DNA of 64,000 bases from Planctomycetota bacterium. Lineage in GTDB: Bacteria; Planctomycetota; UBA1135; UBA2386. The stretch is taken from positions 234,104-298,103 of the forward strand of contig JBFWWV010000004.1 in the NCBI GenBank assembly GCA_050245995.1, given 5' to 3'. Under the pieces are notes generated by a model. That model ran no database searches and was not told the origin of the DNA. It saw nothing but the letters and a program-made list of their open reading frames with translations. Shown one piece after another: positions 5,012 to 49,338 of the stretch (within the stretch, counting starts at the first letter, position 1; every line of letters begins with the position of its first letter). Made by a program: the position numbers and the translations under genes.

Positions 5012-5114
5012 CCGGGTCGCCGGCGCGCGCGGGCTCTTCGTCGGGACCTACTTTGCAAAGCAAAGCCAAGGGCGCTAGCATGCGCCCGCGGCGCGGTCGT
5101 GGGCGGCCGCCGAG

Positions 5115-7796
5115 GTGACGATGCGAACGACGTTGCTGTCCGTTCTGGTTCTGGTGCTGGCCGCTGTGGTCGGGTGGCTGGCCTTCGGCGGCGGTGGCGC
5201 GCCGGCGGCGCCGGAAGGGGACGCTGCCGGTGGGTCGCCGACGACCGCGCCCCCGGCCGTCGTTGCTGCGGAGACTCGCGCCGATGCGGGCGGCGCCAAC
5301 GCGACCGCTCCCGGCACTTCGGCGCGCGTCGCGGCAGGGCCGCCGGTGACCGAGGCAGTCGACGACGAGGTGCAGGCCGAACCGCCGCCCATTCCGGACA
5401 ACGCGGAGACGCTGGTCGTGCGCGTGGTCGACGCGGCGACGCAGGCGCCGGTCGCCGGCGCCGAGGTGCGGTGGGCGGACATGGGGTTCATCATCCAACG
5501 GCGCATGGCGGGGCTGCCGCGCGGGGCTTCGTTCGGCGACCTGCGGGAGCTCGATCCCGAGGACCTGGCGCGCCGCTTCGGCTGGACCGCGCGCACGGAC
5601 GCGCGCGGCGAGGCGGTGGTGCAGATGGCGAACGCGGCCACGGTGTGCGCGCGTCACGGCGAGCGCTACGGGCAGACGCAGGTGGACCCGCGCAAGCCGC
5701 CGCCCGAGGGCGTCCGCATCGAGCTGCGGGTGGACCGGGCGCTGCGCGTCCTGGTTCGCTCGGCGGCCGGCGACCCGGCCGGCCCCGTGCCGCTCGAACT
5801 GGTCGCGGTGCGCACCAGCGGCCCGCCGCGTCAGGTGGCCCGCGCCGAGTCGGGTGCCGACGGCGCGGCGGTGTTCGCGCACGCTCAGGAGCTGCAGCTC
5901 GGCCGCAGCGACGGCGCGTGCCGGGTGCGGGCGGCGCTGCCGGGTCTCGACGATGCCGGGGTCGAGGTCGACCCGCGGTCGCCGCCGGCCGAGCCGGTGG
6001 TGCTGCAACTGCCGCCGTGCGGTCGGGTGCTGGCGGCGATCGACGTCGGCGCCGTGCGCCGTGCCGAGGGGCAGATCACGCTGGCCGCCGCCGCCGACCC
6101 GATGGTGAACCAGCTGCGCGCGTCGATCGACGACGACGGCTGGGCGCGGTTCGCCTGGGTGCCGGCGGGGACGAGGTTCGTGGCGACGGCCAGCTTCGAC
6201 CGCGTCGGCGCGCGCCACGAGTTCGCCGGCCCGCCGGGCGACGGTGACGAGGTGCGGGTCGAACTGCGCCCCGACCCCGGGGTGGTGATCGTCGCCGGAC
6301 GGGCCGTGGACTCCCGGGGGCGCGCGCTCGGCGGGATGCAGGTCGGCCTGCAGTTCCGGATCGGCACCGGCCGCGTCTCCGGCTCGGCGCAGACCGGCGC
6401 CGACGGCACGTTCCGGTTCGCGGCCGGCCCGGCGGCCAACCCGCCGCGCATCGACGAGCTGACCATCACCGTGTCGAAGGTCGACTGCCTGCGGTCCTCG
6501 GTCACGCGCGGGCCGCTCGACCTGCCGGCGGGGCTCACCGACCTCGGCGAGCTGGTGTTCGCCGAGGAACGCCTCGTGGTCGCCGGTCGCTTCGACGGGC
6601 CCGGCGCGCGCTCGGAGCGCCGCCGCGGCATGTCCGTCGAGCGCTGGTCGGCCGGCGAGGCCGGCGTCGAGGCCGGCTGGCGCGCGGTCGAGGGGCTGAG
6701 CCACTTCCAGCACGAAGGCGCGTTCGCCTTCGGCGGCGACACCGCGCCCGGCCGGCACCGGCTGGTGGTCGGCGTGCGCGGCGAGTTCGACCGCCAGGAG
6801 GTCGAGTTCGCGCTCGGCACCGACGATCTCGTGGTGCACCTCGCCGAGACCTTCGGCCTGCGCGTTCGGGTGCTGGCGCCGCCGGGCGTGCCGGCGGCGC
6901 GGGTGGCGCTGCGGCGCGCGGGCGACGCCGTGGTTGCGCCGCCCAGCGAAGGCGTCGCGGCGGTGTTCGACCAGCGCATCCGCCGGGTCTTCGACGACCG
7001 CATCCAGGTGTGGAGCGAGCTGCCGCCCGGCACCTACGCCGTCGCGGTCCTGTGCGTCGATCGCGACCTGGTGCTCGCCGAGCGAACGGACCTGGTGCTG
7101 CCGGCGCCGGGCGGCGGTGAGCTGCCGCTGGTCGAGCTGGACGTGCGCGACCTCCTGCGGCGCATCGAGCTGAAGTTCCGCGCCGCCGACGGCGCCCCGA
7201 TCCCGTTCGGCGGCAAGGCGGCGGTGTTCGACCTGCCGCCCGCCGACCCCGCGCGCTGGCAGGGGCACCGCGCGCAAGGCAGCGGCTGCACGCTGGTCGT
7301 GCCGGCGGGGCCGCGCGACCTGCTGGTGACGGTCGACGGCTTCCGGCCGCAGCGGCTCGCGGGTGTGGACGGCGATCGCGAGGTCGTCCTCGAGCGCTGG
7401 GGCGACCAGGAGTTCACGGTGACCGGCGCGGCGTCGCCGCCGGGCACCGAGCTGCGGCTGCGCGTCCTGCCGGTGACCCCCGCGAGCACGGCGCGTTATC
7501 GCATGCCGTTCGGCGACGAGGGCGCTGCCGGCGACCTGCTCACGCCCGGCGGGGTCGCCACGCCGCTGCAGGACGGAACCGTGCGCGTGCCCGTCGCCGA
7601 CGGCGAGCACCGCGTGGCCGTCGAGCTCTGGCCCAAGGGCGCGCTGCAGTTCGGCCAGCCCGGCCGCAACGTGATCCCGCTCGAGGGCATCGCGCCGGCG
7701 ACGTTCGTGCCCGGCCCGACGCCGGTCGAACTGCGGATCGACGCCGCCGCCGTCAAGGACGCCGTCCGGCGGTCGCTGCAGGGGCAGCGCCGCTGA
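5115..7796 (+). CDS. secreted/membrane-anchored protein with multiple carboxypeptidase-regulatory-like (CarD_reg/transthyretin-like) beta-sandwich repeats
   Basis: ATG preceded by GAGGTGA SD. N-terminal signal anchor MTMRTTLLSVLVLVLAAVVGWLAF. Repeated motifs of the type VVRVVDAATQAPVAGAEVRW, AGRAVDSRGRALGGMQVGLQF and TGADGTFRF. Paralogous to the C-terminal region of the sigma-fusion protein at 46140..49211. Confidence 0.7.
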   Translation: MTMRTTLLSVLVLVLAAVVGWLAFGGGGAPAAPEGDAAGGSPTTAPPAVVAAETRADAGGANATAPGTSARVAAGPPVTEAVDDEVQAEPPPIPDNAETLVVRVVDAATQAPVAGAEVRWADMGFIIQRRMAGLPRGASFGDLRELDPEDLARRFGWTARTDARGEAVVQMANAATVCARHGERYGQTQVDPRKPPPEGVRIELRVDRALRVLVRSAAGDPAGPVPLELVAVRTSGPPRQVARAESGADGAAVFAHAQELQLGRSDGACRVRAALPGLDDAGVEVDPRSPPAEPVVLQLPPCGRVLAAIDVGAVRRAEGQITLAAAADPMVNQLRASIDDDGWARFAWVPAGTRFVATASFDRVGARHEFAGPPGDGDEVRVELRPDPGVVIVAGRAVDSRGRALGGMQVGLQFRIGTGRVSGSAQTGADGTFRFAAGPAANPPRIDELTITVSKVDCLRSSVTRGPLDLPAGLTDLGELVFAEERLVVAGRFDGPGARSERRRGMSVERWSAGEAGVEAGWRAVEGLSHFQHEGAFAFGGDTAPGRHRLVVGVRGEFDRQEVEFALGTDDLVVHLAETFGLRVRVLAPPGVPAARVALRRAGDAVVAPPSEGVAAVFDQRIRRVFDDRIQVWSELPPGTYAVAVLCVDRDLVLAERTDLVLPAPGGGELPLVELDVRDLLRRIELKFRAADGAPIPFGGKAAVFDLPPADPARWQGHRAQGSGCTLVVPAGPRDLLVTVDGFRPQRLAGVDGDREVVLERWGDQEFTVTGAASPPGTELRLRVLPVTPASTARYRMPFGDEGAAGDLLTPGGVATPLQDGTVRVPVADGEHRVAVELWPKGALQFGQPGRNVIPLEGIAPATFVPGPTPVELRIDAAAVKDAVRRSLQGQRR

Positions 7797-25242: not shown

Positions 25243-25403
25243 AGGCTGTGACGTAGTTTGGCACTCTGCGACACTGTCGGGCGAATCACGACTGCCGCTC
25301 CAAGTAGCCGAGGCGCGCGGCATGACTTTGACAGTGGAGCCGAGCCTGAATGCTCTGCTCAGACGCCCTTGACGGGGCTCTCGATGGCGTTATCTTGGTG
25401 TGC

Positions 25404-26294
25404 ATGCGGCCGAAGAAGGCGAGACGACGGCGGAATGTCGGTAGGGCGTTGCTGGCCTTTGCGGCTCTGCTGGTGCTTGCGGTGGCATACTGGGCAACAT
25501 GGGAAGCCCCGGTCGCTTCTCCGGGGAGGACTATTGCGGTGGGTGGCCAGCAGGTTGCTATTGAAGCGCTTGCTCTGGACTATGAGAGTGTTCGGTCCAG
25601 TCTAGACGCAGTGATCGGATTCTCAGATGGAGAGTCGGATGATCACGGCGTTATATCGCCGGAGTGTGCCTCAGTAGAGGGGGACGCGAGCGTCGGCGCG
25701 CAGGTCTCGGATAAGCGATCAATATGGACTACAGTGCTCCGCCAGCCAGAGGTGCTTACGCCATTGGCAATTACTGAGAGTGTCGAATTCAACCCTCGGG
25801 CAAGTTCCTGCGGATCGCAGCCTATGGAGAGCCTGTCCGCGATAGTCGAATCTCATGGTGAGTTGATCAGGAGGGCTAGGCAGGTAGAGATGTCGACCCT
25901 GACGCAGGAGATGGCTCGCGCATATGTCTCAGGTACGTATCAACCCCCATCGCTTCTCGAGGACCCTCGGACGGCCTCTGTGGCTCGGCGAGTCTTGACG
26001 CAGCAAGGAAGGTCATCTCTCCTCACAAAGCCCCGTGAAGCCCTAGAGTTTCTGTCGCATTCTGTGGAGTTGCTGACAGAATGCAACTTTGGCGTCTTCT
26101 CGATCAATGGTGAGACGGCATTGTTCCTGATCGACGACCTCCCTGGTACCGTGGAGGCTCGGAAGTTCAGGAGCTTCCTGGAATACGAGTATGTGTCCAT
26201 GTTGTCTCAATGGGCGCTACACTGGAGGCTTCTTTCGCCGTGGGAATGCGATAGCCTGCTTCAGCGCTTCTCTCAGGCCAAGCAAGTCTACTGA
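25404..26294 (+). CDS. hypothetical membrane-anchored protein (low-GC island gene 1)
   Basis: Track ORF 25350..26294, start at M19: MRPKKARRRRNVGRALLAFAALLVLAVAYW (signal anchor). No recognisable motifs. Local GC ~50% against a ~70% background. Confidence 0.5.
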   Translation: MRPKKARRRRNVGRALLAFAALLVLAVAYWATWEAPVASPGRTIAVGGQQVAIEALALDYESVRSSLDAVIGFSDGESDDHGVISPECASVEGDASVGAQVSDKRSIWTTVLRQPEVLTPLAITESVEFNPRASSCGSQPMESLSAIVESHGELIRRARQVEMSTLTQEMARAYVSGTYQPPSLLEDPRTASVARRVLTQQGRSSLLTKPREALEFLSHSVELLTECNFGVFSINGETALFLIDDLPGTVEARKFRSFLEYEYVSMLSQWALHWRLLSPWECDSLLQRFSQAKQVY

Positions 26295-26331
26295 TCGGGG
26301 TGTCTCATACAATCCAAAAGAGGAGAGTGGA

Positions 26332-26850
26332 ATGAAGAGTCCCAATTGGACGTCGATTGCAGTTGCTTTCTCGCTACCCCTTGTTGTGATCCCGAGTGCT
26401 GTTTTCGACGACACGGGAGCAGAGCCTGTATGCGTGTCTGCGTGTGCCGCAACCTATGGCAACAGTCCTACCGGGGGGAGTGTCGGTGTTGCGGCGAGTT
26501 CAGCATCCGGCAACTCGAATGGTGAGTGCGATTGTCTTCAAGACCATTGCAGTAAGGTGAAAGACTGCGACATCTTGGTGTTCTTCCAGGTTGTGGTCTT
26601 CGATCCATTCCCAGGCGATGGTCCTACGACGGTCGTCTTTCCGCCCGATGCCAACGGATACTCGGTGCATATCGACAACGATCCCTCTACTGGCTACCCC
26701 AATAGTCATTCCACGGGCATCTATGTGGATGCCTGTGGCGCGATAGCGGTCAAGACGCTCACAGTCAAGAATCCGGATGGTAGCACTGGATCATTCGGAA
26801 TATCTCTTGGCTGCGGCAATTGCGCATTGGGTGACTGGAATTGCCCCTGA
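26332..26850 (+). CDS. small secreted cysteine-rich protein (172 aa, 10 Cys in mature part; low-GC island gene 2)
   Basis: Track ORF 26191..26850. ATG at M48 preceded by the perfect SD AAAGAGGAGAGTGGA-ATG. Signal peptide MKSPNWTSIAVAFSLPLVVIPSAV. Cysteines at CVSAC, GECDC, DHC, KDC, DAC, GCGNC and WNCP. Local GC ~45–55%. Confidence 0.6.
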   Translation: MKSPNWTSIAVAFSLPLVVIPSAVFDDTGAEPVCVSACAATYGNSPTGGSVGVAASSASGNSNGECDCLQDHCSKVKDCDILVFFQVVVFDPFPGDGPTTVVFPPDANGYSVHIDNDPSTGYPNSHSTGIYVDACGAIAVKTLTVKNPDGSTGSFGISLGCGNCALGDWNCP

Positions 26851-26949: not shown

Positions 26950-26989
26950 GCGCGGCGGCCGGCTGGGTCGCCACATGCGGCCGCCGCGC
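26950..26989. terminator. 12-bp perfect-stem hairpin between convergent genes (putative bidirectional terminator)
   Basis: GCGCGGCGGCCG – 16-nt loop – CGGCCGCCGCGC. Lies 10 nt after the selenoprotein stop (minus strand) and 100 nt after the Cys-rich gene stop (plus strand). No clean U-tract, which is common in high-GC genomes. Confidence 0.45.
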
Positions 26990-26998
26990 GCCCGCGCC

Positions 26999-28051
26999 TC
27001 AGCGCTTCTTGCCGTGCCGCGGGCAGGCGCGGTCGCCGGCCTGGCAGGCGCCGCAGCTGCGGTTGTAGCCGAGCTTGCCGCCGTCCTTGAGCTCGTCGGC
27101 GAGCTCCTTGGCGCGCTTGCCGGCGCGGGTGCTGCGCTGGCGCGACGACAGCTTCTTGAGCTCGCCGTAGGCGTCGTCGTAGTCGCGGCGCTCGACCAGC
27201 TGCAGCAGCTCGGCGAGCTGCTTGCCGGCGTCGATCTCGCGGGCGATCTTCTTGTCGGCGAGCAGCTCCGCGAGTCGCGCGGCGGCCTCCTCGGCGCGCG
27301 GCACGCCGTCGTAGCCGCCGTTGGCGACCGCGTCGAGCTGCGTCCACGCCAGGTGGTAGTCCTCGTCGGTCACGGCGGTGGCGGCGCCGTCGAGCGAGCT
27401 GCCGACCAGATCGGTCATGCGCGCCATGCGATCCCGCGCCTGCGCGGCCGCGGCCTCGGACAGCCCGCCGCCGTCGAGCAGCTCCTGCGCCTTCCGGAAG
27501 GCCGCGCCGGGCTTGCCGGTGCGTTGCAGCTCGGCGACCTCCTCGAGGCCCGCGGCGACGTTGGCCGGCCGCGCGCCCTCGAGCGTCTTCTCGATCAGCG
27601 ACTCCTCGAGCTCCGCGGGGTGCCCGGCGAAGCGGACGATGCCCTCGGCGTCGACGAGGACGCACGCTGGGATGCCGCGGTGGTCATAGCCCGACTCCCA
27701 GGAGCCGATCGCGACCGGGTAGATCATGTCGGGCGTCTTGTCGAGGAACGCCTGCAGTGCCTTCTTGGTGCCGCCGGTCACACCGACGACCACCAGACCC
27801 CGGTCGAACATGCGCTCGTGCAGCGAGCGCAGGTGCGGGATCTGGTGCATGCACGGCACTCAATGGTCGCCCCAGAACTCGATCAGTACGGCCGAGCCGC
27901 GCAGGTCGCTGAGCTTCTCGTCGGCGAAGCCGTCGAAGTGGAACGTCTCCAGGAACGTGATCTCGGCGGCAGGCTTGCCGACCTTCTGGGCCGGCAGCAT
28001 CGCGACCAGGTTGGTCGCCAGCAGCAGCCCGAACGGAACTCGCATCGTCAT
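26999..28051 (-). CDS. TlpA/ResA-like thioredoxin-fold thiol:disulfide oxidoreductase with in-frame TGA (putative selenocysteine) in the active-site UxxC motif
   Basis: Two track ORFs are contiguous in one frame and separated only by TGA at 27860..27862: 27860..28075 (ending ...AVLIEFWGDH) and 26999..27859 (starting V-PCMHQIPHLRSL...GLVVVGVT). The joined sequence FWGDH-U-VPC aligns with the canonical FWATWCGPC...GL.VVGV of the Cys paralogue at 41731..42915. Start at M9, with GGAGG 6 nt upstream of ATGACGATG. Signal peptide MTMRVPFGLLLATNLVAMLPAQ. Stable hairpin GCGCUCG-CUGCA-CGAGCGC about 30 nt downstream of the UGA (SECIS-like). C-terminal helical extension ends in CGACQAGDRACPRHGKKR. Confidence 0.7.
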
Positions 28052-28184
28052 CGGTCTCCTCCGGAGGTCCGACACGATAGCGCCGCGCGGGCCCGGCGAC
28101 AGCGGGGGAGGGCCGGTCCGGCGTCCCGGGACGATTCCTTCACGATCGCCTGGCCGAGCGCTGCCGTGACCCGCGCCCGACCGG

Positions 28185-35206: not shown

Positions 35207-35346
35207 GGGGCAGCATCGGCGTGGCGCGGGCGGCACCTGGAGGCGACGCCGCGGCTGCGCCTGCGGCCGCCGGGAAGGCCGCGATTCTCCAGAACGTTGA
35301 TCCCGCGCGCGGTCGCCGTTCGCTCGGCGCAGCGGAGCCCCGCTGC

Positions 35347-36783
35347 ATGCACCTGACCCGCCGTCGCCTGCTCTCGCTCGCCCCGTGGACGCCGCTGGCC
35401 TTCGGCCTGGGCACCTTGCCCGGGTCGCGGCCGCCCCGGGAAGCGCCGCCGCTGCCGCGGCCGCCGCGCGGCGGCGACGAGGCGGCGTTCCTGCGCGCCG
35501 TCGTGGCCGGCGACCTGGGCGAGGTGCGGCGCGGGCTGGCGCGTGATCCGGCGCTCGCGGCGGCGACCGACGCCGACGGATGCTCGGCGGTGGCGCTGGC
35601 GTTCCTGCACGGCCGCGACGAGGTCGGCGGGGTGCTGGTCGCGGCGTGCCGCGCCGCCGGCCGCGACCTCGACGTCGTCGAGTCGGTGCTGGCCCGCGAC
35701 TGGCCGCGGTTCGACGCGCTGGTCGCGGCCGGCGCCGACGTCGACGCGCCGCACCCGGCCTGGGGGCCGCCGCTGTGGACCGCCGCGCTCGCCGGCGCCA
35801 ACGGGCTGTGGCGGCTGCGTTCGGCCGGCTGCGACCCGGAGCAGCGCGGTGCTGCGGGCACGACGCCGGCGCGCGCGGCGATGACGTGCCGCACGCTGAC
35901 CGGCGCCCGCGTGGCCGCGACCGACCTGCTGGCCAACGGCGCCGACGCCAACGCTGTGCAGCCGGACGGCGACTCGGTGCTGCACGGCGCGGTGCGGCGC
36001 CGCAGCGCGGACCTCGTCCGCCTGGCGGTGCGCAAGGGCGCCGACCCGGCGGCGCGCGACCGCGACGGGCGCACGCCGCGCGACCTCGCCGTGGCGCTCG
36101 AATGGGCCGAGGGCGCGGCGCTGCTGGAGCGGCACGCCGAGCTGCCGCGCGACCACCGGGCGTCGCGCTTCCTGTTCGACCGGGACCGGGCAGAGGTCGC
36201 GCGGCCCGACCTGTCGGACGTGCCGCGCGCGCTGCAGTGCGAGGTCACCGGCAGCTCGCACATGCGGCTCCAGCGCGTGCGCGAGCTGGTCGGCGCCGAC
36301 CCGCGCCTGACCTTCTCGATGTCGGCGGACGACGAGCTGGCGATCGAGGCCAGCGCCCACACCGGCAACGCGCCGATCATGCGCCTGCACCTCGAGTGCG
36401 GCGCGCCGCTGTCGCTGCCGACGGCGGTGTCGCTCGGCGACGCCGCGACCGTGCGCTTCCTGCTCGAACGCGACCCGCTGCTGGTGCACGAGCGCGGCGC
36501 GCACGACTTCCCGGTGATGTTCTACACGGCGTTCGGCACCGGCTCGGTCGAGCTGGCCGAGCTGCTGCGCGGTCTCGGCGTCGGCGTGGATCAGGAGTCG
36601 ATGGGCACGACGACCCTGCATTGGTGTGTCAAGCGCGACCGCGTCGACCTGGCGCGCTGGCTGCTGGACCACGGCGCCGACCCGGAGGCGCTGGCGTTCT
36701 CGTGGGACCCGCGCGGGCAGACCCCGCGCGAGCTGGCGGCGGCCGAGGGCAGCGCGGCGATGAAGGAGCTCCTCGACGGCTGA
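35347..36783 (+). CDS. ankyrin-repeat protein with twin-arginine (Tat) signal
   Basis: Track ORF 35221..36783, start at M43: MHLTRRRLLSLAPWTPLAFGLG (RRxLL Tat motif). Multiple ANK repeats (DGDSVLHGAVRRRSADLVRLAVRKGADPAARDRDGRTPRDLAV, etc.). Confidence 0.75.
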   Translation: MHLTRRRLLSLAPWTPLAFGLGTLPGSRPPREAPPLPRPPRGGDEAAFLRAVVAGDLGEVRRGLARDPALAAATDADGCSAVALAFLHGRDEVGGVLVAACRAAGRDLDVVESVLARDWPRFDALVAAGADVDAPHPAWGPPLWTAALAGANGLWRLRSAGCDPEQRGAAGTTPARAAMTCRTLTGARVAATDLLANGADANAVQPDGDSVLHGAVRRRSADLVRLAVRKGADPAARDRDGRTPRDLAVALEWAEGAALLERHAELPRDHRASRFLFDRDRAEVARPDLSDVPRALQCEVTGSSHMRLQRVRELVGADPRLTFSMSADDELAIEASAHTGNAPIMRLHLECGAPLSLPTAVSLGDAATVRFLLERDPLLVHERGAHDFPVMFYTAFGTGSVELAELLRGLGVGVDQESMGTTTLHWCVKRDRVDLARWLLDHGADPEALAFSWDPRGQTPRELAAAEGSAAMKELLDG

Positions 36784-38375: not shown

Positions 38376-40565
38376 ATGGAGTCGATGCGGGCGAAGGGTC
38401 TGGCGTGGATGCTGGTCGCGGCGAGCGTGACGGCGCAGGAATGGGTGCCGTTGCGCGTGCGGCACTCGGGCAGCTGCGCGTTCGACGTCGCCCGGCAGCG
38501 CACGGTCCAGTTCGACGCGTTCCGTGGCACGGCGGAGTACGACGGCGAACGCTGGCGGGTGGTGACGACCGCGCACGCGCCTTCACCGCGCGCGCGCCCG
38601 CTGCTCGCGTACGACCTGCTGCGCTTCCGCGTGGTGCTGGTCGGCGGTCAGAACGGGCAGGACCTGCGCGACACCTGGGAGTACGACGGCAGGGACTGGC
38701 GCGAGGTGCCGGGCGCGCTGCTGCCGGCGGGCGTCGCCGAAGGGAACGCCGCCGCGGCCTACGACGCGACGCGGGCGCGGCTGGTGTTGCTGCACCTGGA
38801 CCGGACGCTCGAGTACGACGGCACCCGGTGGCTGTCGATTGCTGTGCCGCATCGCCCGCCGGCTCGCCTTTCCCCCGCGTTGGCGTCCCTCGGCGACGGG
38901 CGCACGCTGCTGTTCGGCGGCGAGGATCCGACCTCGCAGTACTACCCGCCGTACTTCGACGACACCTGGGTGTACGACGGCAGCGACTGGAGTCCGGTCG
39001 CGACCGCCGTCGCGCCGGAGGCGCGCGGGTCGCATCGAATGGCGTACGACGCCGGCCGCGACCGCGTCGTGCTCTACGGCGGCGTGACCGTCGACGGCGC
39101 GGCGCCGCCGATTGCCTGGGAGTTCCACCGCGGGGCGTGGCACGCGGTGCCGCAGGCAGAAGGGCCCCCCGGTGCGTCGCAGATGGTGTACGCGTGGGGG
39201 CGCGGCGGGGTCGAGGTGGTGCTGGACCGGCCGGACGACGAACCGGAGGTGTGGCGCTTCGACGGCGGCGCGTGGACGCGGGATCGGGAGGCGGACTTCC
39301 CGAGCGCGCGCAATGGGCATTCGATGGTGTTCGACCCCGTGCGACGGACGACGTGGCTGGTCGGCGGGTTCTCGTCGGCCACGCTGGACTACACGTGGTT
39401 CGGCGACACCTGGGCGTTCGCACGCGGACGCTGGTGGCCAGTGCAGACGTCCGGGTTGCCGGGCGGCAGGAGGGGAGCCGGGGCGGCCTTCGACCCGACC
39501 ACGGGCAACACGATCCTGTTCGGCGGGATGACCGACATCTGGTGGCCGACCGGCGAGACCTGGAGCTTCGACGGCACCCGCTGGACGCTGCTGCCGCAGG
39601 CGAACGCGCCGTTCGCGCGCGCCGGGCACGCGATGGCGACCGACTTCGGCCGCCGTCGCATCGTGCTGTTCGGCGGCACCGCCGGCCTGAGCCTCACGCT
39701 GGCGGACACCTGGGAGTTCGACGGCAGTCGCTGGCAACAGATGGCGCCAGTCGAGTCGCCGTCCCCGTACGGCGAGTGCACCATGACCTACGACGCGGGG
39801 GCCGCACGCGTGCTCGCCTACGCCGGCGCCGACTGGGCACCCGGCGGCCGGGGCACCTGGAGCTACGACGGGGTCACCTGGCGCCGCGTGCCGGGTGCCG
39901 ATCAGCCGGCGACCCCGCTCAGTGCGTTCGCAATGACCTACGACGCGCACCGCGGTCGCGCGCAGTTGCTGACCGACGCGCTGTGGGAGTTCGATGGTCG
40001 GCGATGGCAGCAACTGGCGCCCAGCGAGGCCGGGCCCCGGCTGGAGCAGTTCACGTTCGTCTGGACGGCGGACGACGGTACGCAGCGCTTCGGCGGCTCG
40101 TTCTACGGCTCGCCTCCGATCGGCGATCATTGGCAGTGGCGCCCGTCTCCGCACAGCACCTGGACCCGCCGCGGCGCCGGCTGCGCCCGCGCGGGCTTCG
40201 TGCCGACGCTCGACGCGGCGGCGCCGCCGGCCAGCGTGCTCGGCGCCGTGCACGAGGTGCGGCTCGCGGCCGGCGACGCCGACCTCGCCGTGGTCGTGAC
40301 CGGCTTGGACCCGATTCAATGGAACGGGACCGCGCTGCCGGTGTCGCTGCTGCCGTCCGCGCCGCAGTGCAAGCTGTGGATCGCGCCCGAGCTGGGGGCC
40401 CGCCTGCTGCCGCTGCAGGGCGGCCGCGGAGTCGTTCCTTTGGCGATCCCGGCCGATCCGGCGCTGGCCGGCGGCGTGCTGTGCCTGCAGGCGCTGACCT
40501 TCGACAGCGCGCTCGGCGCGGCGTCGCTGGCGACCAGCAACGCGGGCGTGCTGCGGACCCACTGA
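38376..40565 (+). CDS. secreted Kelch-repeat beta-propeller protein (galactose-oxidase-like central domain) with C-terminal ~110-aa Ig/E-set-like domain
   Basis: SD AAGGAGG 7 nt before ATG. Signal MESMRAKGLAWMLVAASVTAQE. Repeated Kelch blades (W.YDG..W, LFGG motifs). C-terminal GC...PQCKLW...LQALTFD...SNAGV domain shared with 42938..45211 and 62050..64000. Confidence 0.8.
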   Translation: MESMRAKGLAWMLVAASVTAQEWVPLRVRHSGSCAFDVARQRTVQFDAFRGTAEYDGERWRVVTTAHAPSPRARPLLAYDLLRFRVVLVGGQNGQDLRDTWEYDGRDWREVPGALLPAGVAEGNAAAAYDATRARLVLLHLDRTLEYDGTRWLSIAVPHRPPARLSPALASLGDGRTLLFGGEDPTSQYYPPYFDDTWVYDGSDWSPVATAVAPEARGSHRMAYDAGRDRVVLYGGVTVDGAAPPIAWEFHRGAWHAVPQAEGPPGASQMVYAWGRGGVEVVLDRPDDEPEVWRFDGGAWTRDREADFPSARNGHSMVFDPVRRTTWLVGGFSSATLDYTWFGDTWAFARGRWWPVQTSGLPGGRRGAGAAFDPTTGNTILFGGMTDIWWPTGETWSFDGTRWTLLPQANAPFARAGHAMATDFGRRRIVLFGGTAGLSLTLADTWEFDGSRWQQMAPVESPSPYGECTMTYDAGAARVLAYAGADWAPGGRGTWSYDGVTWRRVPGADQPATPLSAFAMTYDAHRGRAQLLTDALWEFDGRRWQQLAPSEAGPRLEQFTFVWTADDGTQRFGGSFYGSPPIGDHWQWRPSPHSTWTRRGAGCARAGFVPTLDAAAPPASVLGAVHEVRLAAGDADLAVVVTGLDPIQWNGTALPVSLLPSAPQCKLWIAPELGARLLPLQGGRGVVPLAIPADPALAGGVLCLQALTFDSALGAASLATSNAGVLRTH

Positions 40566-40693: not shown

Positions 40694-41602
40694 CTACTGA
40701 CCCCGCGGCACCGTTGCCGCGGCGTCGACGTGCCGCCGCACCAGCTCCGGGATCATGTACAGGCAGTCGACGTGGATGCCCGGCGTCGCCTCGTCGAACG
40801 TGTACAGGTGGAACCCGCCGACGTGGCACTCCGCCGCGATGGGCACGCCGCGCTCCGTGAACGCGCGGCTCGGTTCGCGCGCGCCGGCGACGCTGGCGAG
40901 CACGAGGTCGGCGCACTCGGCGGTCGACGCGTAGTCGGTCGGGTACATGCCGTGCGCGAGCACGAACGTCTTGTCGCCGCGCGCGGCGGCCTGGGCGAAC
41001 CGCAGGAAGTCGACCATCTGCTCGGCCTCGGGCGCGCGCACGTCCGCGGCGACGACCGACGCGTAGATCGAGTCGGCCGACACCAGCGCGGTGATGCGTT
41101 CGAAGAACTCGGGCTCCTTCAGCAGCTCGCGCACCGCGCCGTAGCCGGCGCTGAAGAACGTGATCAGGATCGGGCCGAAGCGCACGTCGCGGCCGCAGCG
41201 CCGCGACAGCTCGCGTTCGCCGGCCGCGAGCAGCGCGCGGAACGCGGCGGGGTCGCGGTAGGGCGCCGTGAACGCGCTCGACCGGCCGCTCAGCCTGCTG
41301 GCGAGCAGCACGCCGGTGCGCCGCATGCGCGCGAAGTTCTCCTCGGCGATCTGCACGCCGCCCTGGAAGTGCACCGCCAGCGGCACGTGGTCGCCCGCGG
41401 GCGGGACGAAGTCCTCGGGCACGAACAGCACGGCGTCCGGCAGCTGCGTGCGGTCGCCGCGCGCCAGCCGTTCGAGCTGGCTCAGCGCCGACGGCAGTCG
41501 CTCTGGCGAGGCGCTCGCCGCGGGCGCGGGCGCTGGTGCGGCGGCGCAGGCGCCCAGCAAGGCGAGGCAGGACCACGGCAGCAGCGAACTCCGCGTCGGC
41601 AT
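40694..41602 (-). CDS. hypothetical lipoprotein
   Basis: 302 aa. Signal plus lipobox MPTRSSLLPWSCLALLGACAAAP. No confident domain assignment (possible alpha/beta-hydrolase-like, FFSAGYGAV). Confidence 0.6.
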   Translation of the reverse strand: MPTRSSLLPWSCLALLGACAAAPAPAPAASASPERLPSALSQLERLARGDRTQLPDAVLFVPEDFVPPAGDHVPLAVHFQGGVQIAEENFARMRRTGVLLASRLSGRSSAFTAPYRDPAAFRALLAAGERELSRRCGRDVRFGPILITFFSAGYGAVRELLKEPEFFERITALVSADSIYASVVAADVRAPEAEQMVDFLRFAQAAARGDKTFVLAHGMYPTDYASTAECADLVLASVAGAREPSRAFTERGVPIAAECHVGGFHLYTFDEATPGIHVDCLYMIPELVRRHVDAAATVPRGQ

Positions 41603-41730
41603 GCCGCGACTATCGCGACCCGGTCGGTCGGGCGGAAGCGCGTTCGGGACGCCGCCGGTACGCCGCGACCGCCGCGCTCGGGCAGCCCGGCGGGTATCGT
41701 GGCCGGCTCGCCCCGAACCCGGAGGTCCTC

Positions 41731-42915
41731 ATGTCGCTGCGTCGTCTCGCCGTTCCGTTCGTGTCCGTCCTGCTGCTCCCCCTGGCGTTGGCCCAGGACC
41801 CAGTCGACGCCGCCGGCGGCGGCGAGGTTGCCAAGGTGCGGGCGCTGTTCACCGCGTTCACGACCGCGCGCGACACGGCGCGCGACCAGCAGCGGCCGCT
41901 GATGCAGCAGCTGCGCGAGGTGGAGCGCGGCAGCGACGAGTACAAGGCGCTGGTGGCGAAGCTCACCGCGCTGCGCGGCTCGGTCGAGGCGCCGCAGACG
42001 GCGTTCGAGACCGCGTTCGCGGCCGGCGACTGGAGCGCCTTCGACCGCGAGGCCGACGGCGACCTGCTGCAGACCGGCCTGCAGGCGGCCGCCCGCGACC
42101 TCGACGCCGACCCCGAGCGGGCGCTGCGCGCGTGCCGGATGTTCCTGGACGCGTTCGCCGGCGACCGCGCCGCCGGCTCGATCCGCGGCACCGCGCTGCC
42201 GAACGCGCTGCTCGCCTGCGGCGACGGCGACGAGGCCGCCGCGGCGGCGCAGGCGGCCGCCGACGCCGCCGATGGCGTCGCCAAGGCGCGCGCGTTGTTG
42301 ACCGTCGGCGACATCGCCGCCGCGCGCGGCGACGCGACCGCGGCGGCGGCGCGCTACGCCGAGGCCGAGGCGCTCGCCGACGAGCGCACGATGGGCTACG
42401 TCACGCTGCGCAAGGAGCTGATCGGCAAGCCCGCGCCCGACATCCGCAGCGACCAGTGGATCGGCGCCGACGCGTCGTCGCTCGCGCAGCAGCAGGGCAA
42501 GGTCGTGCTGGTCGACTTCTGGGCGACGTGGTGCGGTCCGTGCCGCCACGTGATGCCGGCGCTCGACGCGATGTACCGCGAGAACCGCGAGCGCGGCCTG
42601 CAGGTGATGGGCGTGACCCGATTCTACGAGCGCGGCTACCTGCCGGCCGACAGCACTGAGATGCAGAGCGGCGGCGCCAGCGTCGACGGCATGACGGCGG
42701 AGACCTTTCCCGACCACGTGCGCGCGTTCCGCGACCACACGGGCATCTCGTACCCGTTCGTGATCGCCGCCGAGGACGACTTCAAGGCCTACCACGTGCG
42801 CGGCATCCCGACGCTGGCGGTGGTCGACCGCGACGGCAAGGTCGCGCTGGTCACCGTCGGCAGCGGCAGCGAGGCGCTGCTGAAGTTCGCGGTCGAGCGG
42901 CTGCTGGCCCAATGA
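41731..42915 (+). CDS. TlpA-like thioredoxin-fold thiol:disulfide oxidoreductase (WCGPC) with N-terminal TPR-like helical extension
   Basis: Track ORF 41536..42915, start at M66, GGAGG 6 nt upstream. Signal MSLRRLAVPFVSVLLLPLALAQD. Thioredoxin domain VVLVDFWATWCGPCRHVMPALDAMYRENRERGLQVMGVT...GIPTLAVVDRDGKV. Confidence 0.85.
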   Translation: MSLRRLAVPFVSVLLLPLALAQDPVDAAGGGEVAKVRALFTAFTTARDTARDQQRPLMQQLREVERGSDEYKALVAKLTALRGSVEAPQTAFETAFAAGDWSAFDREADGDLLQTGLQAAARDLDADPERALRACRMFLDAFAGDRAAGSIRGTALPNALLACGDGDEAAAAAQAAADAADGVAKARALLTVGDIAAARGDATAAAARYAEAEALADERTMGYVTLRKELIGKPAPDIRSDQWIGADASSLAQQQGKVVLVDFWATWCGPCRHVMPALDAMYRENRERGLQVMGVTRFYERGYLPADSTEMQSGGASVDGMTAETFPDHVRAFRDHTGISYPFVIAAEDDFKAYHVRGIPTLAVVDRDGKVALVTVGSGSEALLKFAVERLLAQ

Positions 42916-42937: not shown

Positions 42938-45211
42938 TCAGTAGGGCCGCAACGCCAGAGCGTTGGTGATCGCCGCGATCCCGAACGGCGCGTTCGGGTC
43001 GAGCGCCGCAGCCTGCAGCCCGAACACCCGCCCGGTGAGTTCGGGCAACGCGGGGATCGACAGGAGCAGCGTCGCGGTGCCACCGCCGTGGGCCTGGGTC
43101 CAGCGCAGGTCGGCCGGCACCCAGAGCGCGCAGGTCGGCGATGGCCCGTCGATCGGTAGCGGCAGCGGGTGGCCGCGCCACGCGTGCAGGCCGCCGCCGA
43201 GCGCCAGGCCGAGCACGCCGGCCGCGGCGGGCAGGTCGCGCAGGTGCAGGGTCAGCGTCGTTCCGAGCGACGGGCCGGCGTCGGGCACCGCGGTCTCGAG
43301 CACCGGCACCGTGACGCCGGCGGCGGCGCAGCCGGCGCCGAGCGGTCGGGCGGTCGGCGTCGGTGCCGGTGCCACGAACGCAGCCACCGTACCCAACTGC
43401 ACGACCTGGCCGCGGCGCGGGTCGAACGCGAGGGCGCGTTCGCGTTCGCCGCTGAGGAGCGGAACCACCGAGATCGGCACTGGCGCGTCGATCCGCCGAT
43501 TCCAGGTGCCGCCGTCGAAGGACCACAGATCGTCCTTCCATCCCGATTGGAAGCGCGTGCCGCCCGACATCATGAGGCGCGCGAGGGCTGCGTCGAACAC
43601 CATGCTGTGCCGGTACACCGTCGGGCCGCCTGCCGCGGGCAGCTCGCGCCATGCGCTGCCGTCGAACTCCCAGGTGTCGCCGAGGACTCCGACCTCGATG
43701 GGGCCGATGCCGCCCTGGAGCAACGTGCTGCCGCGAACCGGATCGAAGCCCATCGCATGCAGTCGGCGTGCCGTTGGCGCCGCGCCCGCGATCGCGACCG
43801 GCCGCCAGGCATCGCCGTCGAACTCCCAGGTGTCGGCCAGCACGTGACCCGGGCCACTGCCGCCGAACAGGACGACTCGATGGCGTCGGCTGTCGTAGAC
43901 CATCGAGTGCTGGTGCCGCGGCACCGGCGGGGGACTGCGACGGTCCAGCACCGGCCTGCGCCACCCGATGCCGTCGAACTCCCAGGTGACGTCGGAGGGG
44001 AAGGACGGCGGCGCGTGTCCGCCGAACAGGACCATCCGGCGCCGCCGCGTGTCGTAGACCATGGCGACGCCCGTCTGCACGGACGGACCCGGTCCGGGGA
44101 ACACCGTCCAGGTGTCCTCGACTCCTTCGAGGGTGGCGAGGTTCGCCTGTGGGTCGAGGCCGACGGCGACGAACCGCTCGCGGGCTGCGTCATAGGCCAT
44201 CGCGATCGGTGCGATGGGGACCTGCGGCCGCAGTTGCGACCACGAGGCGCCGACCAACGCGGTGGTCGCGCCGGTGTTCGGGCCGGCCATGGGGCCGCCG
44301 GCGACCCGGACCAATCGGTGGGTGTTGCGGTCGAACTCGATCCTCGCGGTGTCCTGGGCTACGACGCTGGTCGTGGTTGTGCTGTGCCAGGACCCGTCGA
44401 AGGACCACAACGTGTCCGGGTCCGGGGCGCCGATCGTCCGCACCTGCAGCGTCGACCAGTCGAAGCACATGCTCGCGGACAGGCTGGTGCGCGCCGGCGG
44501 CGCCACCTGGGTCGGGACCTCCGCCCACCCGGCTTCGAGGAGTCGCCACGTCTCGGTCGAGGCCCCGCCGCCGAACAGGACCATCTGGTCGCGAACCACG
44601 TCGTAGGCCATCAACGCGTCGGTGCGCGGACCCGGCGAGACGACGGTGTGCAGCGCGCGCCAGCGGGTGCCGTCGAAGACCCAGGTGTCGGCAATCGCCG
44701 TCGGCAGACCCGACCTGCCGCCGAACAGGACGGTGCGGCCGCGGGTGAGGTCGAAGGCCATCGCCGCCCCGGTGCGCGCACTCGGGCCGGGGCTCGCCGC
44801 GGTGGTCGCCGGATGCCAGTCGCGCCCGTCGAACTCCCAGGTGTCGCCGAGGAGCAGCCGGCTGCCGGAGGTGCCGCCGAACAGTACGACGCGATCGCGC
44901 CACCAGTCGTAGCACATCGAGTGACCGAAGCGTGGCGGTGGGTTGCCGATGCCATCCGGGCGGCGCCACAGCGAGTCTTCGAGGATCCAGGTGTCCGTCA
45001 GGTTGGCGGTGCTCGACAGCGAATTGCTGCCGCCGAACATGATCACGGCACCGCCCGGGGCGTGGCACACGGCGTGGCCCATTCGCGGCGGCGGGATCAG
45101 TCCCCGCCACTGCTGTGCGGCGACCGGCCGGCCGGTTGCGAGCGTGAGCAGGGTCTCCAGGCCGAGCAAGAGCACCGCCGGGAGCCGGGGCACACCGAGC
45201 CTCTTCACCAT
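42938..45211 (-). CDS. secreted Kelch-repeat beta-propeller protein, paralogue of 38376..40565
   Basis: 757 aa. Signal MVKRLGVPRLPAVLLLGLETLLTLATG. Kelch blades (VLFGG, DTWEFDG repeated). C-terminal GCAAAG...PTCALWVP...LQAAALD...TNALAL domain. Confidence 0.8.
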   Translation of the reverse strand: MVKRLGVPRLPAVLLLGLETLLTLATGRPVAAQQWRGLIPPPRMGHAVCHAPGGAVIMFGGSNSLSSTANLTDTWILEDSLWRRPDGIGNPPPRFGHSMCYDWWRDRVVLFGGTSGSRLLLGDTWEFDGRDWHPATTAASPGPSARTGAAMAFDLTRGRTVLFGGRSGLPTAIADTWVFDGTRWRALHTVVSPGPRTDALMAYDVVRDQMVLFGGGASTETWRLLEAGWAEVPTQVAPPARTSLSASMCFDWSTLQVRTIGAPDPDTLWSFDGSWHSTTTTSVVAQDTARIEFDRNTHRLVRVAGGPMAGPNTGATTALVGASWSQLRPQVPIAPIAMAYDAARERFVAVGLDPQANLATLEGVEDTWTVFPGPGPSVQTGVAMVYDTRRRRMVLFGGHAPPSFPSDVTWEFDGIGWRRPVLDRRSPPPVPRHQHSMVYDSRRHRVVLFGGSGPGHVLADTWEFDGDAWRPVAIAGAAPTARRLHAMGFDPVRGSTLLQGGIGPIEVGVLGDTWEFDGSAWRELPAAGGPTVYRHSMVFDAALARLMMSGGTRFQSGWKDDLWSFDGGTWNRRIDAPVPISVVPLLSGERERALAFDPRRGQVVQLGTVAAFVAPAPTPTARPLGAGCAAAGVTVPVLETAVPDAGPSLGTTLTLHLRDLPAAAGVLGLALGGGLHAWRGHPLPLPIDGPSPTCALWVPADLRWTQAHGGGTATLLLSIPALPELTGRVFGLQAAALDPNAPFGIAAITNALALRPY

Positions 45212-46139: not shown

Positions 46140-49100
46140 TCAGTCGGCGCGCGGGATGTCGACCGTCGACGGCGCGTCGAGGTCGGGTCCGCATTCGAAC
46201 GCACCGCGGTAACGGACCATGCCGTCGCGGGTGGCCTCGACGTCGTAGCGGCCGAACGCGAACACCTGCCGCATGCCCCAGTATCGGAACCCGCGCAGGT
46301 CGGCGCGCAGCGCGGTCACGGTGCACTCCGCGGCCACCGTTCCGTCGGTCGCGCGCACGGTGACCTGCAGCGGCGTGTCGCGCTCGGGGTGGTCCTGGCC
46401 GTCGCCGTTGAAGGTCAGCGTGCGGGTGCGGCCGATGGTCAGCGGGACCCGCAGCGCGGTCTCGGTCCCGGCCGCGAGCGTGACGGTGAGGTCGGGCGCC
46501 AGCAGGTCGGTGGCGTTGACGGTCACGCGGTAGGCCCCGGGCACCGCGCGCACGCGCAGGTCGCCGGCCGCGAACGTGTGTTCGCACGCGACCTCCAGGC
46601 CGGCCGCGTCCCACAGCCGCAGGCCCGGCGGGTCGCCGCGCCACGGCCGCCCGTCGGCGTGCACCAGCTCCGCGACCAGCGCGCCGGTGGCCGGCAACGC
46701 GATCGTGCCGCAGTCGTGCGCGCGGCCCGCGTCGAGCGGCACCGGCGCCCCGAGCGGTTGCTCGTAGCCGCCGACCCGACAGGTCAGCGCGAACGTCCCG
46801 CCGCTCAGGCCGGCGAACGCGAAGTCGCCGTTCGCGTCGGTCCTGGCGGTGCGGTGATGGTCGCTGTCGCGGTGCGTGAGCGTGAGGGTGCGCGCGTCGA
46901 ACGGCGCGCCGTCCCCCCGCACCACGCGCCCGCGGATGGTGCCCGACGGCAGCCGGTGTGCCGGCACCACCAGTTCCAGCGGCCCGCCGACGCCGATCCC
47001 GTCGATCGCGATCGCCGGCGCGTCCGGTGCCTCGGGCGGCGCCGCCGCGACGGTGCGCAGGGTGCCGGCGGGCGGCCGCAGCCGGAAGCTGCCGTCGGCG
47101 TTGGTCTCGGCCGTGGTCGCTCCTCCGTCGGCGGCCACGGCGGTGACGCGCCAGTCGTCGAGCCCGCGGCCGGTCGGGTCGACGACGCGGCCGCGCAGCA
47201 GCAGCGCATCGACGACCAGGTCGCAGACCAGCGGCCCCGCCGGCGGATCGACGAACTCGCGCGACGCGGCGACCCGGCCTGCGACCAGCGCCACCACGGT
47301 GAACGTCTGCTGCGGCTGGTAGGGCAGCCAGAACGAGCCGTCCGGCCGCGTGCCGCACTGGCTCCAGTGCCCGTCCTCGTCGCGCGAGCGACGCGACTCG
47401 ACCATCGCGAGCATCGGCGCGCCGGCCGCCGTGCGCACGCTGCCGCGCACGCCGACGCCGGCGGGCAGGTCGAGCGCGACCGCGGCGTCTTCGCCCGCCC
47501 GCAGCTCGACCTCGACCCCGTCCGGGCAGTGCGGCCACGCCGATGCGCCGACGCGCGCGCGGCCGGGGGCGAGGCCTTCGAAGCGGAAGCGACCGTCGGC
47601 GTCGGTGCGCCGATGCCGCGGCACGCGACCCGCGAGCAGCGTGCCGTCGGCGTCGCGCCGGCTGTCCTGTTCGCTCGGCGTGACGGTGACGACGGCACCC
47701 GCGACCGGCGCGCCGGTGGCGTCGCGGACGACTCCGTCGATGCCTGCGGCGACGCGGCCGAGCACCAGTCGGACGTCCGCGCCGCGGCCGTTGACGAACC
47801 GGGCCCGCGAGTCGGCGTGGCCGGAGCAGCTCGCGGCGACGCGGCTCTCGCGTGGGTCGGCGGTGGCGATCGCGAACCGGCCGTCCGCGCCGCTGCGGCC
47901 GGCGCGGCGGCTCACGAGCTCGGCGGGCTCGGGCAGCGAGTAGCGGCCCATCGCGGTGCCGCGCATCAGCCACAGATCGGCGCCGGCCACCGGGGCACCG
48001 TCGGCGTCGACCACCTGGCCGCGCAGCACCTGCACCGCGGGGCGCACCAGCCGCACCTCGGTGACGGCGCCACTCTCGACCTGCGCCGGCCGCCCGTCCG
48101 TGTGCTCCACCGGCATCGACACGTGCCAACGGCCGGGCGCGAGGTCGGTGAGCTGCACGAGGCCGTCGTCGTCGGCCACGAAGTGCGCCGCGCCGTCGTC
48201 GAACGGCTGCAGCGGATCGCCGCCGCGCCACACCACGATCTGGGTCCCGGGCAACGGCAGCTCATGGCCCTCGGCGGTGCTGGCCAGCGTCCGGATCACC
48301 AGCGTGCCCGTGGTCGCTACGCGCGGGGCGTCCGCCGCGTGGCGCACCGCGGCGTCCCGTGCGCGGGTCGCCTCGGCGGCGCGCGCGGCGTCGGCCGGTC
48401 CGCCGCCGCCGGCGGTCGCGGCGATCGGCGGGGTCGGGTCGGCTGGCGTGCCGAGCGTCTGCCAGAGCAGGCCGCAGCACAGCAGCACGGCGAGGGCGCA
48501 GAGCAGCTTGTTGGTCACGAGCGAACCTCCGATCAGGGAGACGGTCCCCGCCGCGGCGAGCGGCGTCGCGGGAGTCGGTGCGCCGGGGACCGGTCGTGCG
48601 GCGCCGGCGCGCAGCACCGCCTCGCGCACCGCGTCCAGGCCGCGCGGCGCGCCCGGCGGCAGCGCGAACGCGGCCAGTCCCGCCGGCGCCCGGCGGCGCA
48701 GCGCCTCGAGCCCGCGGTGGATGCGCATGCGCACGGTGCCGGGCGGGATCGCCAGCACCTCGGCGATCTCGGCGGGGCTCATCCCGTGCTGCAGCTGCAG
48801 CAGCAGCGCCTGCCGCTGCTCGGTCGGCAACGCATCGACGTGCGTGCGCAGCCAGGCCACGACCTCGCCGCGCGCGGCCGCGTCGGCCGGGTCGATCGCG
48901 TCACCGCCGAGCTCCGGGATCGCGTCGGCACGGCGGCGGCGCGCGTCGCGGCGCGCGTTGCGCGCCACGTTGGTCAGCAGTCCGGCCAGCCACGGCTCCA
49001 GCCGGCGCGCGGCGTCGAACACCGCGGCGCGTTCGATCGCCAGCAGGAACGTCTGCTGCACCGCATCCTCGGCGTCGGCGTGCCCGCACAGGTGCAGCGC

Positions 49101-49211
49101 CACCGGCAGCAGCCGCGGCGCCAGCGCGTCGAACACAGCCGCCAGGGCGTCGAGGTCGCCCTCGTCGCGGAAGCGGGCGAAGCGTCTGGCGTGCGGGTCC
49201 ATGCGCCCCAT
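46140..49211 (-). CDS. ECF sigma factor fused to a transmembrane anti-sigma-like C-terminal region with carboxypeptidase-regulatory-like repeats (membrane-tethered sigma factor)
   Basis: Track ORF 46140..49364. Start at M52 (MGRMDPHARRFARF); 49202 is the alternative. N-terminal sigma2/sigma4: EDAVQQTFLLAIERAAVFD...AEIAEVLAIPPGTVRMRIHRGLEALRRR. Then a TM LLCALAVLLCCGLLW. About 750 aa of repeated CarD_reg-like beta-sandwich modules follow (VLRGQVVDADGAPVAGADLWL, GVVRDATGAPVAGAVVTV, TDADGRFRFEGL, TNADGSFRL). A single uninterrupted frame. Confidence 0.7.
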   Translation of the reverse strand: MGRMDPHARRFARFRDEGDLDALAAVFDALAPRLLPVALHLCGHADAEDAVQQTFLLAIERAAVFDAARRLEPWLAGLLTNVARNARRDARRRRADAIPELGGDAIDPADAAARGEVVAWLRTHVDALPTEQRQALLLQLQHGMSPAEIAEVLAIPPGTVRMRIHRGLEALRRRAPAGLAAFALPPGAPRGLDAVREAVLRAGAARPVPGAPTPATPLAAAGTVSLIGGSLVTNKLLCALAVLLCCGLLWQTLGTPADPTPPIAATAGGGGPADAARAAEATRARDAAVRHAADAPRVATTGTLVIRTLASTAEGHELPLPGTQIVVWRGGDPLQPFDDGAAHFVADDDGLVQLTDLAPGRWHVSMPVEHTDGRPAQVESGAVTEVRLVRPAVQVLRGQVVDADGAPVAGADLWLMRGTAMGRYSLPEPAELVSRRAGRSGADGRFAIATADPRESRVAASCSGHADSRARFVNGRGADVRLVLGRVAAGIDGVVRDATGAPVAGAVVTVTPSEQDSRRDADGTLLAGRVPRHRRTDADGRFRFEGLAPGRARVGASAWPHCPDGVEVELRAGEDAAVALDLPAGVGVRGSVRTAAGAPMLAMVESRRSRDEDGHWSQCGTRPDGSFWLPYQPQQTFTVVALVAGRVAASREFVDPPAGPLVCDLVVDALLLRGRVVDPTGRGLDDWRVTAVAADGGATTAETNADGSFRLRPPAGTLRTVAAAPPEAPDAPAIAIDGIGVGGPLELVVPAHRLPSGTIRGRVVRGDGAPFDARTLTLTHRDSDHHRTARTDANGDFAFAGLSGGTFALTCRVGGYEQPLGAPVPLDAGRAHDCGTIALPATGALVAELVHADGRPWRGDPPGLRLWDAAGLEVACEHTFAAGDLRVRAVPGAYRVTVNATDLLAPDLTVTLAAGTETALRVPLTIGRTRTLTFNGDGQDHPERDTPLQVTVRATDGTVAAECTVTALRADLRGFRYWGMRQVFAFGRYDVEATRDGMVRYRGAFECGPDLDAPSTVDIPRAD

Positions 49212-49338
49212 CCTTGTCCGGCGGCCGCCGGCCGTCACCGCCTTCCGGTCGAAAGGCGGCCGCGCTGCCGCCGGCGCGGCGTCGCCGGTTGCCGCCGCGG
49301 CGCCCGGTCCGCATGATCGCCGCCCTGCCGTGGAACGA

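Follow-up and report, generated by a model that had tools for sequence, protein, structure and literature searches.

UxxC TlpA-like selenoproteins (U denotes selenocysteine, Sec) are an established class. Thiol-disulfide isomerase-like selenoproteins assigned to cd02966 (TlpA-like) were described in 2005 from the Sargasso Sea (PMC1088965), and a 2026 review lists them as well, along with UGC-containing TlpA-family, Redoxin-family, HUIPC-motif and VPGUxxT thioredoxin-like selenoproteins (PMC13188914). Here, we analyze a gene on the minus strand (26999..28051) of a 64,000-nucleotide stretch of Planctomycetota DNA (contig JBFWWV010000004.1 of assembly GCA_050245995.1; called the window for simplicity), whose frame is interrupted by one TGA at the active-site position of a TlpA-like thioredoxin domain. 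An initial annotation made from the letters of the window had proposed that this TGA encodes Sec. Based on comparison with related sequences, we put the probability at roughly 85% that this is a genuine selenocysteine-encoding gene for an exported TlpA-like thiol-disulfide oxidoreductase; the proposal is supported by a TGA conserved in seven genes, by Cys homologues and by equally conserved flanks. The gene would be an added member, possibly a new subfamily, of the selenoprotein kind known since 2005.

The window protein shares with the cd02966 UxxC selenoproteins the TlpA/ResA-type fold and Sec as the first residue of UxxC; in both, Cys homologues are widespread and a hairpin lies 3' of the in-frame UGA. 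In this comparison, made by description, the window protein differs by a C-terminal extension of ~200 residues containing a helical domain and a CxxC-x6-C-x2-H (CCCH) tail. The window protein and two orthologues stayed far short of the cut-off in every NCBIfam model tested, as did ten truncated cluster representatives from the wider family; for the ResA subfamily NF002854, for example, scores were 54-74 versus a cut-off of 170. NF041054 (ResA-like WAxxUGC motif-containing, profile of 354 amino acids, aa) likewise combines a ResA-like thioredoxin domain with an active-site Sec in about 350 aa, but the match reaches 28-36 bits versus a cut-off of 300 and the motif here is H-U-V-P-C instead of WAxxUGC, so that the window protein is not a member. 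The local motif H-U-[IV]-P-C is nearly identical in NF047660 (HUIPC motif thioredoxin-like selenoprotein), which is however a small protein with a 91-position profile, matched locally by the orthologue L001 only (12 bits versus a cut-off of 105); this likeness of motif is convergent or shared and does not indicate membership in NF047660. Members of the VPGUxxT family, type 1 (NF041382, 349 aa), resemble the window protein in length and weakly in the helical C-terminal region (window protein, E 0.003; family member P0174, E 4.5e-8), but differ in the motif (VPGUxxT versus HUVPC) and score at about 14-33 bits versus a cut-off of 350; the likeness suggests a shared two-domain architecture of thioredoxin and helical domains. 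Finally, Bacillus subtilis ResA, Bradyrhizobium TlpA and CcmG/DsbE, for which structures are solved, carry Cys instead of Sec, lack the helical domain and the CCCH tail and are encoded in cytochrome c or copper-centre maturation loci, whereas the window gene has no such neighbours.

An in-frame TGA conserved at the active-site position

Translation of the minus-strand frame 28051..26999 yields 350 codons with a single internal stop, the TGA at 27860-27862. It is preceded by the residues SAVLIEFWGDH (context …LRGSAVLIEFWGDH-TGA-VPCMHQIPHLRSLHERMFDRGLVVVGVT) and takes the place of the first Cys in a CxxC motif of the TlpA/ResA type, as EFWGDH-U-VPC aligns with FWATW-C-GPC. The frame 3' of the TGA is intact for 286 codons with a G+C content at third codon positions (GC3) of 0.97. 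In GenBank, the locus appears as two hypothetical proteins of 63 aa (AB7O97_06385) and 283 aa (AB7O97_06380). The initial annotation had pointed out the continuous frame, the coincidence of the TGA with the first Cys of the redox motif, a strong GGAGG-type Shine-Dalgarno sequence and the tendency of such genes to be annotated as two fragments; all four are borne out here. The features of the gene and its immediate surroundings, all on the minus strand, are the following.

26999..28051, minus: full selenoprotein gene with Sec at codon 64 and terminal TGA at 26999-27001 (from translation; full-length orthologues have 345-350 aa), proposed
28056..28062, minus: Shine-Dalgarno-like GGAGGAG, 4 nucleotides (nt) 5' of the ATG at 28051, read from the sequence
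27989..28051, minus: predicted signal peptide, residues 1-21 (MTMRVPFGLLLATNLVAMLPA, followed by QKVG), from sequence inspection
27863..28051, minus: N-terminal part, in GenBank the separate 63-aa hypothetical protein AB7O97_06385
27860..27862, minus: in-frame TGA, proposed Sec codon U64, nucleophilic first position of U-V-P-C
27851..27853, minus: putative resolving Cys67 of the UxxC motif, from alignments
27608..27928, minus: TlpA/ResA-like thioredoxin-fold domain, residues 42-148, including an invariant cis-Pro-type Pro128
27086..27559, minus: all-helical C-terminal domain, about residues 165-322, without Pfam family, from the AlphaFold2 model of an orthologue
27014..27055, minus: family-invariant motif C333-x2-C336-x6-C343-x2-H346, from invariant alignment columns
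27791..27847, minus: SECIS-like hairpin (SECIS, selenocysteine insertion sequence), lower stem 27836-27847 / 27791-27802, apical stem-loop 27811-27831
26950..26989, minus: perfect 12-base-pair (bp) inverted repeat of G and C only with a 16-nt loop, 3' of the stop codon, arms 26950-26961 / 26978-26989

The window has a G+C content of 74.5%, and GC3 of its real genes is 0.86-0.99. Both strands of the whole window were scanned for TGA codons with at least 40 stop-free codons on each side in the same frame, GC3 of at least 0.9 and G+C content at second codon positions below 0.6; 27860-27862 was the sole site to pass. Since TGA closes 19 of the 25 GC3-supported frames in the window, it is the ordinary stop of this genome, which excludes a reassigned genetic code. 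Three further candidates for selenoproteins in the window, same-frame pairs of open reading frames (ORFs) split by one TGA at 36781, 46140 and 62050, were rejected, since each TGA is a normal gene end with intergenic sequence and a new N-terminus behind it. The DNA including the TGA has no mismatch in GCA_050247215.1 and in the Logan assembly of SRR27751816, i.e. three assemblies are identical. Gene-call differences 3' of the gene in two sequences (L003 and L004) were considered as strain variation and discarded; both are 100% identical to the window in BLASTN, so that the differences reflect gene calling only.

A protein search returned relatives of full length (345-350 aa) as well as two C-terminal fragments (283-284 aa) which start just past the active site. 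The DNA encoding both fragments (L001 and L032, proteins 48-51% identical to the window protein) carries TGA at the homologous codon: …LLEFWGTH-TGA-VPCSYQIPHLNSL… in L001 (Logan SRR18218237, motif WGTH-U-VPC) and …LLEFWGVH-TGA-VPCIHQVPHLNAL… in L032 (Logan DRR438507, motif WGVH-U-VPC). In both, a signal-peptide-like N-terminus and an AQ[KQ]VG…LRGSAVLLEFWG segment stand in frame 5' of the TGA. Identity among the three orthologues (window, L001 and L032) is 52-64% over the 42 residues before the TGA and 50-64% over the 42 residues after it. A profile search over 1.84 billion cluster representatives (E <= 1e-30) gave 464 relatives, and at least 12 of the best 150 start directly after the active-site position. 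Three further contigs of such representatives were fetched and all four genes on them have TGA at the homologous codon: L036 (WATW-TGA-GPC), L038 (WSRG-TGA-PPC) and two tandem genes of L037 (ENA ERZ27251093 k141_142974, 1723-2700 and 2785-3780; FAYW-TGA-GPC). Both tandem genes of L037 lack the C-terminal CCCH tail. In total, seven genes from six sources (window included) have TGA at this codon, at identities down to roughly 35% and with a gene G+C content from 54% to about 72%.

Other homologues have Cys at this position, as the alignment of orthologues suggested in the initial annotation confirmed: CAPC in P0002, CE[FY]C in P0008 and P0031-36, and CGPC in P0061, P0065, L005, L015 and L016. 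Such TGA/Cys interchange is the accepted signature of a Sec/Cys family. Further family members lack the first-position Cys (IPAC, VREC, ENLC) or have no active-site Cys at all. Homologue searches of genome and metagenome contigs returned the distant WCxPC homologues L005, L015 and L016 only and no close orthologue. Cys and Cys-less copies can be neighbours: L035 (JGI Ga0620614_000400) has a CEFC copy in tandem with a Cys-less copy (…ISVRQKATT…; 3283-4326 and 4378-5430), and P0032 is similarly paired with P0035, apparently on one 6350-bp contig.

The candidate SECIS element and the competing explanations

The 84-nt segment from the UGA is predicted to form a single long hairpin of -43.3 kcal/mol, with z-scores of -2.7 to -2.8 versus dinucleotide shuffles. 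Its lower stem (ACCAGAUCCCG / CGGGGUCUGGU) begins 14 nt 3' of the UGA, and the loop of the apical stem-loop UGCGCUCG-CUGCA-CGAGCGCA (GCGCUCG-CUGCA-CGAGCGC) begins 36 nt 3' of it. In shuffles of synonymous codons, which preserve protein and codon usage, the window copy had the strongest excess stability among the seven TGA genes (z -3.6; none of 500 shuffles was equally stable), followed by L037b (-2.6), L001 (-1.9) and L037a (-1.7). The minimum-energy fold is a single long hairpin in six of the seven TGA genes, with the apical loop starting 36-40 nt after the UGA; L001 and L032 fold like the window copy, with one A-U to G-C compensatory change in the lower stem, and L036 and both L037 genes have the loop at 38-40 nt. 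L038 forms a 7-bp stem with a GUU loop 30 nt after the UGA and fits the consensus of the bacterial SECIS (bSECIS) model in full. The non-Sec homologues (n=6) have no common hairpin (z between -1.6 and +1.2), and the Ile form L034 shows no hairpin signal 3' of the site (z -0.9 and +0.3).

The bSECIS model specifies a loop of 3-9 nt, a stem of 4-16 bp, G in the first two loop positions, a distance of 16-37 nt from the UGA and a minimum free energy of at most -7.5, and a subset of bacterial SECIS elements fails it (PMC13188914). The spacing (36 nt), stem (8 bp) and energy of the window hairpin lie within these limits. The stem-loop that the initial annotation had offered as a bacterial SECIS is therefore present at 27811-27831, as the tip of a longer hairpin, but its fit to the published consensus is marginal with respect to the loop G. 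We consider the predicted hairpin as supportive of Sec insertion and not decisive, its statistical support being moderate.

Several observations weigh against a selenoprotein. The CUGCA loop of the window copy has no early G unless the closing pair is opened (loop GCUGCAC, 7 bp, -10.8 kcal/mol), and four of the other six TGA genes have loops at 38-40 nt, narrowly outside the bSECIS spacing. In three of the seven genes, the hairpin is no more stable than in synonymous shuffles (z of -0.7 in L032, -0.3 in L036 and 0 in L038), and an unbiased comparison of the best local hairpin between Sec and non-Sec forms reached only p = 0.05. RNAalifold found no column-wise conserved structure over all seven Sec sequences, because the stems sit in different registers, which limits the claim of covariation to one compensatory pair among three close orthologues; Rfam at a permissive E-value gave no match to a SECIS family. 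Genes for selA, selB, selD and tRNA-Sec are absent from the 64-kb window and from ~8 kb past its right end. Finally, the closest syntenic orthologue, L034, has Ile instead of Cys at the Sec position (IPAC), i.e. Sec is replaced there by a non-redox residue rather than by Cys, and some paralogues are devoid of any active-site Cys, indicating that the nucleophile is dispensable in parts of the family.

The main residual alternative is that the family uses Sec but this organism has lost the Sec machinery, so that the UGA terminates translation and the gene is a newly dead relic. Complete Sec machinery is found in some Planctomycetes, which makes the trait plausible in this phylum, and Sec use is patchy across the group (PMC4807772). 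This patchiness favours a relic, as do the ready turnover of the active site in the family (U, C, I, V, E and no-Cys forms) and a survey of sel genes in this organism that covers the window and the adjoining ~8 kb. Against a relic stand the 286 codons that are open past the TGA at a GC3 of 0.97, the intact Shine-Dalgarno sequence and start codon, and the most stable hairpin of the seven relative to synonymous shuffles; we regard this explanation as improbable.

We consider it very unlikely that the UGA is read through without selenium, by near-cognate Trp or Cys, or that the locus makes two polypeptides, a 63-aa exported peptide and a cytoplasmic fragment of 283-286 aa. UGA followed by G or C can be a leaky stop context. 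The base after the UGA is G in six of the seven genes and C in L038, and a GTG directly follows the TGA, with an ATG 9 nt further on; neither internal start is preceded by a GGAGG-type Shine-Dalgarno sequence, however, and a C-terminal fragment made in this way would have neither the signal peptide nor the first thioredoxin beta strands. The UGA falls exactly on the catalytic nucleophile of a CxxC fold, the classic position of Sec/Cys interchange, and plain termination with re-initiation has no need of a conserved downstream hairpin.

A lineage-specific nonsense mutation, named in the initial annotation as the outcome that would overturn its proposal, or an artefact of sequencing or assembly in a normal TlpA gene of the Cys type is effectively refuted by sequence comparison: although GenBank lists two separate hypothetical proteins and Cys forms exist in the family, the DNA is identical in three assemblies, the TGA is kept in L001, L032 and four distant genes with both flanks conserved to an equal degree, and the combination of this conservation with Cys forms elsewhere disposes of both explanations.

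Protein architecture and proposed mechanism

With U replaced by C, Pfam assigns AhpC-TSA, Redoxin and Thioredoxin_8 to residues 42-148 of the presumed selenoprotein. A thioredoxin fold with a TlpA-type insertion is present, and Pro128 (G-I-P) is invariant across the family. As the best Pfam match is AhpC-TSA, a peroxiredoxin identity was considered and rejected: there is no PxxxT/SxxC motif, LIEFWGDH-U-VPC having neither Pro at -7 nor Thr/Ser at -3, and the top structural matches are thiol-disulfide oxidoreductases, not peroxiredoxins. The structure was modelled with AlphaFold2 on the Cys orthologue P0002, which is 51% identical to the window protein. The model (mean predicted local distance difference test score, pLDDT, of 91.9) consists of a disordered N-terminus (residues 1-18, pLDDT below 50), the thioredoxin fold (31-157), helices 170-322 with pLDDT above 94, and two short C-terminal helices carrying the C-x2-C-x6-C-x2-H motif. 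All orthologues share a hydrophobic N-terminus with AQ[KRT]VG directly after it, and from its N-terminus the window protein is predicted to be extracytoplasmic. The CCCH motif persists in paralogues which lack every active-site Cys (P0006, P0007 and P0035) and is thus more conserved than the redox motif.

If the gene encodes a selenoprotein, the UGA at 27860-27862 (codon 64) would be read as selenocysteine, with SelB and Sec-tRNA(Sec) recruited by the hairpin starting about 14 nt 3' of the UGA. Sec would thereby be placed at the attacking position of U-V-P-C on the TlpA/ResA-type thioredoxin fold. The pre-protein would be exported by the Sec pathway and its signal peptide cleaved; in the periplasm, the U64 selenolate would attack substrate disulfides, Cys67 would resolve the selenenylsulfide formed with U64, and the enzyme would presumably be re-reduced by a membrane reductase of the DsbD/CcdA type. 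The helical domain and the CxxC-x6-C-x2-H tail probably confer specificity for a substrate or partner (possibly a metal). We infer export and redox chemistry, including its direction, from family knowledge of TlpA, ResA and CcmG.

Genomic surroundings and the wider family

The gene is surrounded by a GH2 glycosidase gene upstream, tRNA-Val and a Band-7 protein, with a BatA/VWA-DUF58 cluster further downstream. DsbD/CcdA, cytochrome-maturation and sel genes were not found near the gene, nor was tRNA-Sec found in eight related loci. The only orthologue syntenic with the window is that of L034 (2815-3861 in Logan SRR14271363, Ile codon AUC), and the GH2 gene upstream is the single neighbour shared, with this orthologue alone; the gene therefore looks like a stand-alone unit. 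A dedicated terminator with a 12-bp stem had been proposed 3' of the gene: the perfect repeat exists at 26950-26989, but it has no T tract, was not called by a terminator scan and is not a canonical intrinsic terminator.

Directly 3' of the selenoprotein gene, the G+C content falls to 52-62% between 25200 and 26900 versus the window mean of 74.5%. The ORFs 25350-26294 (plus strand, 314 aa) and 26191-26850 (plus strand, 219 aa) in this segment have no Pfam match, and the NCBI and Logan gene callers differ on their strand and frame; the segment may be a small horizontally acquired island.

A Cys paralogue had also been proposed in the window. The protein in question, encoded by the ORF 41536-42915 (plus strand, 459 aa), is indeed TlpA-like, with a WCGPC motif that aligns with U-VPC, but it is a distant superfamily relative (30% identity, in the thioredoxin domain alone) of different architecture and not the Cys counterpart of the window selenoprotein; its TlpA-like domain is C-terminal (296-444), after about 290 residues without Pfam match. 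The region of this paralogue is flanked by two large Kelch-repeat beta-propeller proteins (38376-40565, plus strand, and 42938-45211, minus strand), and an ankyrin-repeat protein lies nearby (35221-36783, plus strand). Kelch and ankyrin repeats are eukaryote-like families which are frequent in Planctomycetota. The ORF 46140-49364 (minus strand, 1074 aa) joins an N-terminus with ECF-type sigma-70 regions 2 and 4 to several CarboxypepD_reg-like domains and may be either a fusion or an ORF called too long in DNA of high G+C content.

We propose, as a tentative extension, that the gene is part of a sizeable selenoprotein family for which no curated model exists. Its members would be exported proteins of TlpA type that carry a helical domain and a CCCH tail, with a distal SECIS class of their own (loop 36-40 nt from the UGA, often without early G) and an active site that changes unusually freely between Sec, Cys, Ile, Val and no Cys. 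If this were true, the free turnover of the active site would imply that the conserved function resides partly in the C-terminal CCCH domain and not in the redox motif. As the same fragment signature occurs in many representatives of the family, a Sec-aware family model would correct an annotation error that recurs in Planctomycetota and other environmental genomes. Knowledge of Sec decoding as such is unchanged by this gene; what the locus would add is an exported UxxC oxidoreductase whose C-terminal module, helical and with a CCCH tail, is unusual. Because the family includes forms with Sec, with Cys and without Cys, at times in tandem, they would provide a convenient natural series on what Sec brings to a periplasmic thiol-disulfide oxidoreductase.

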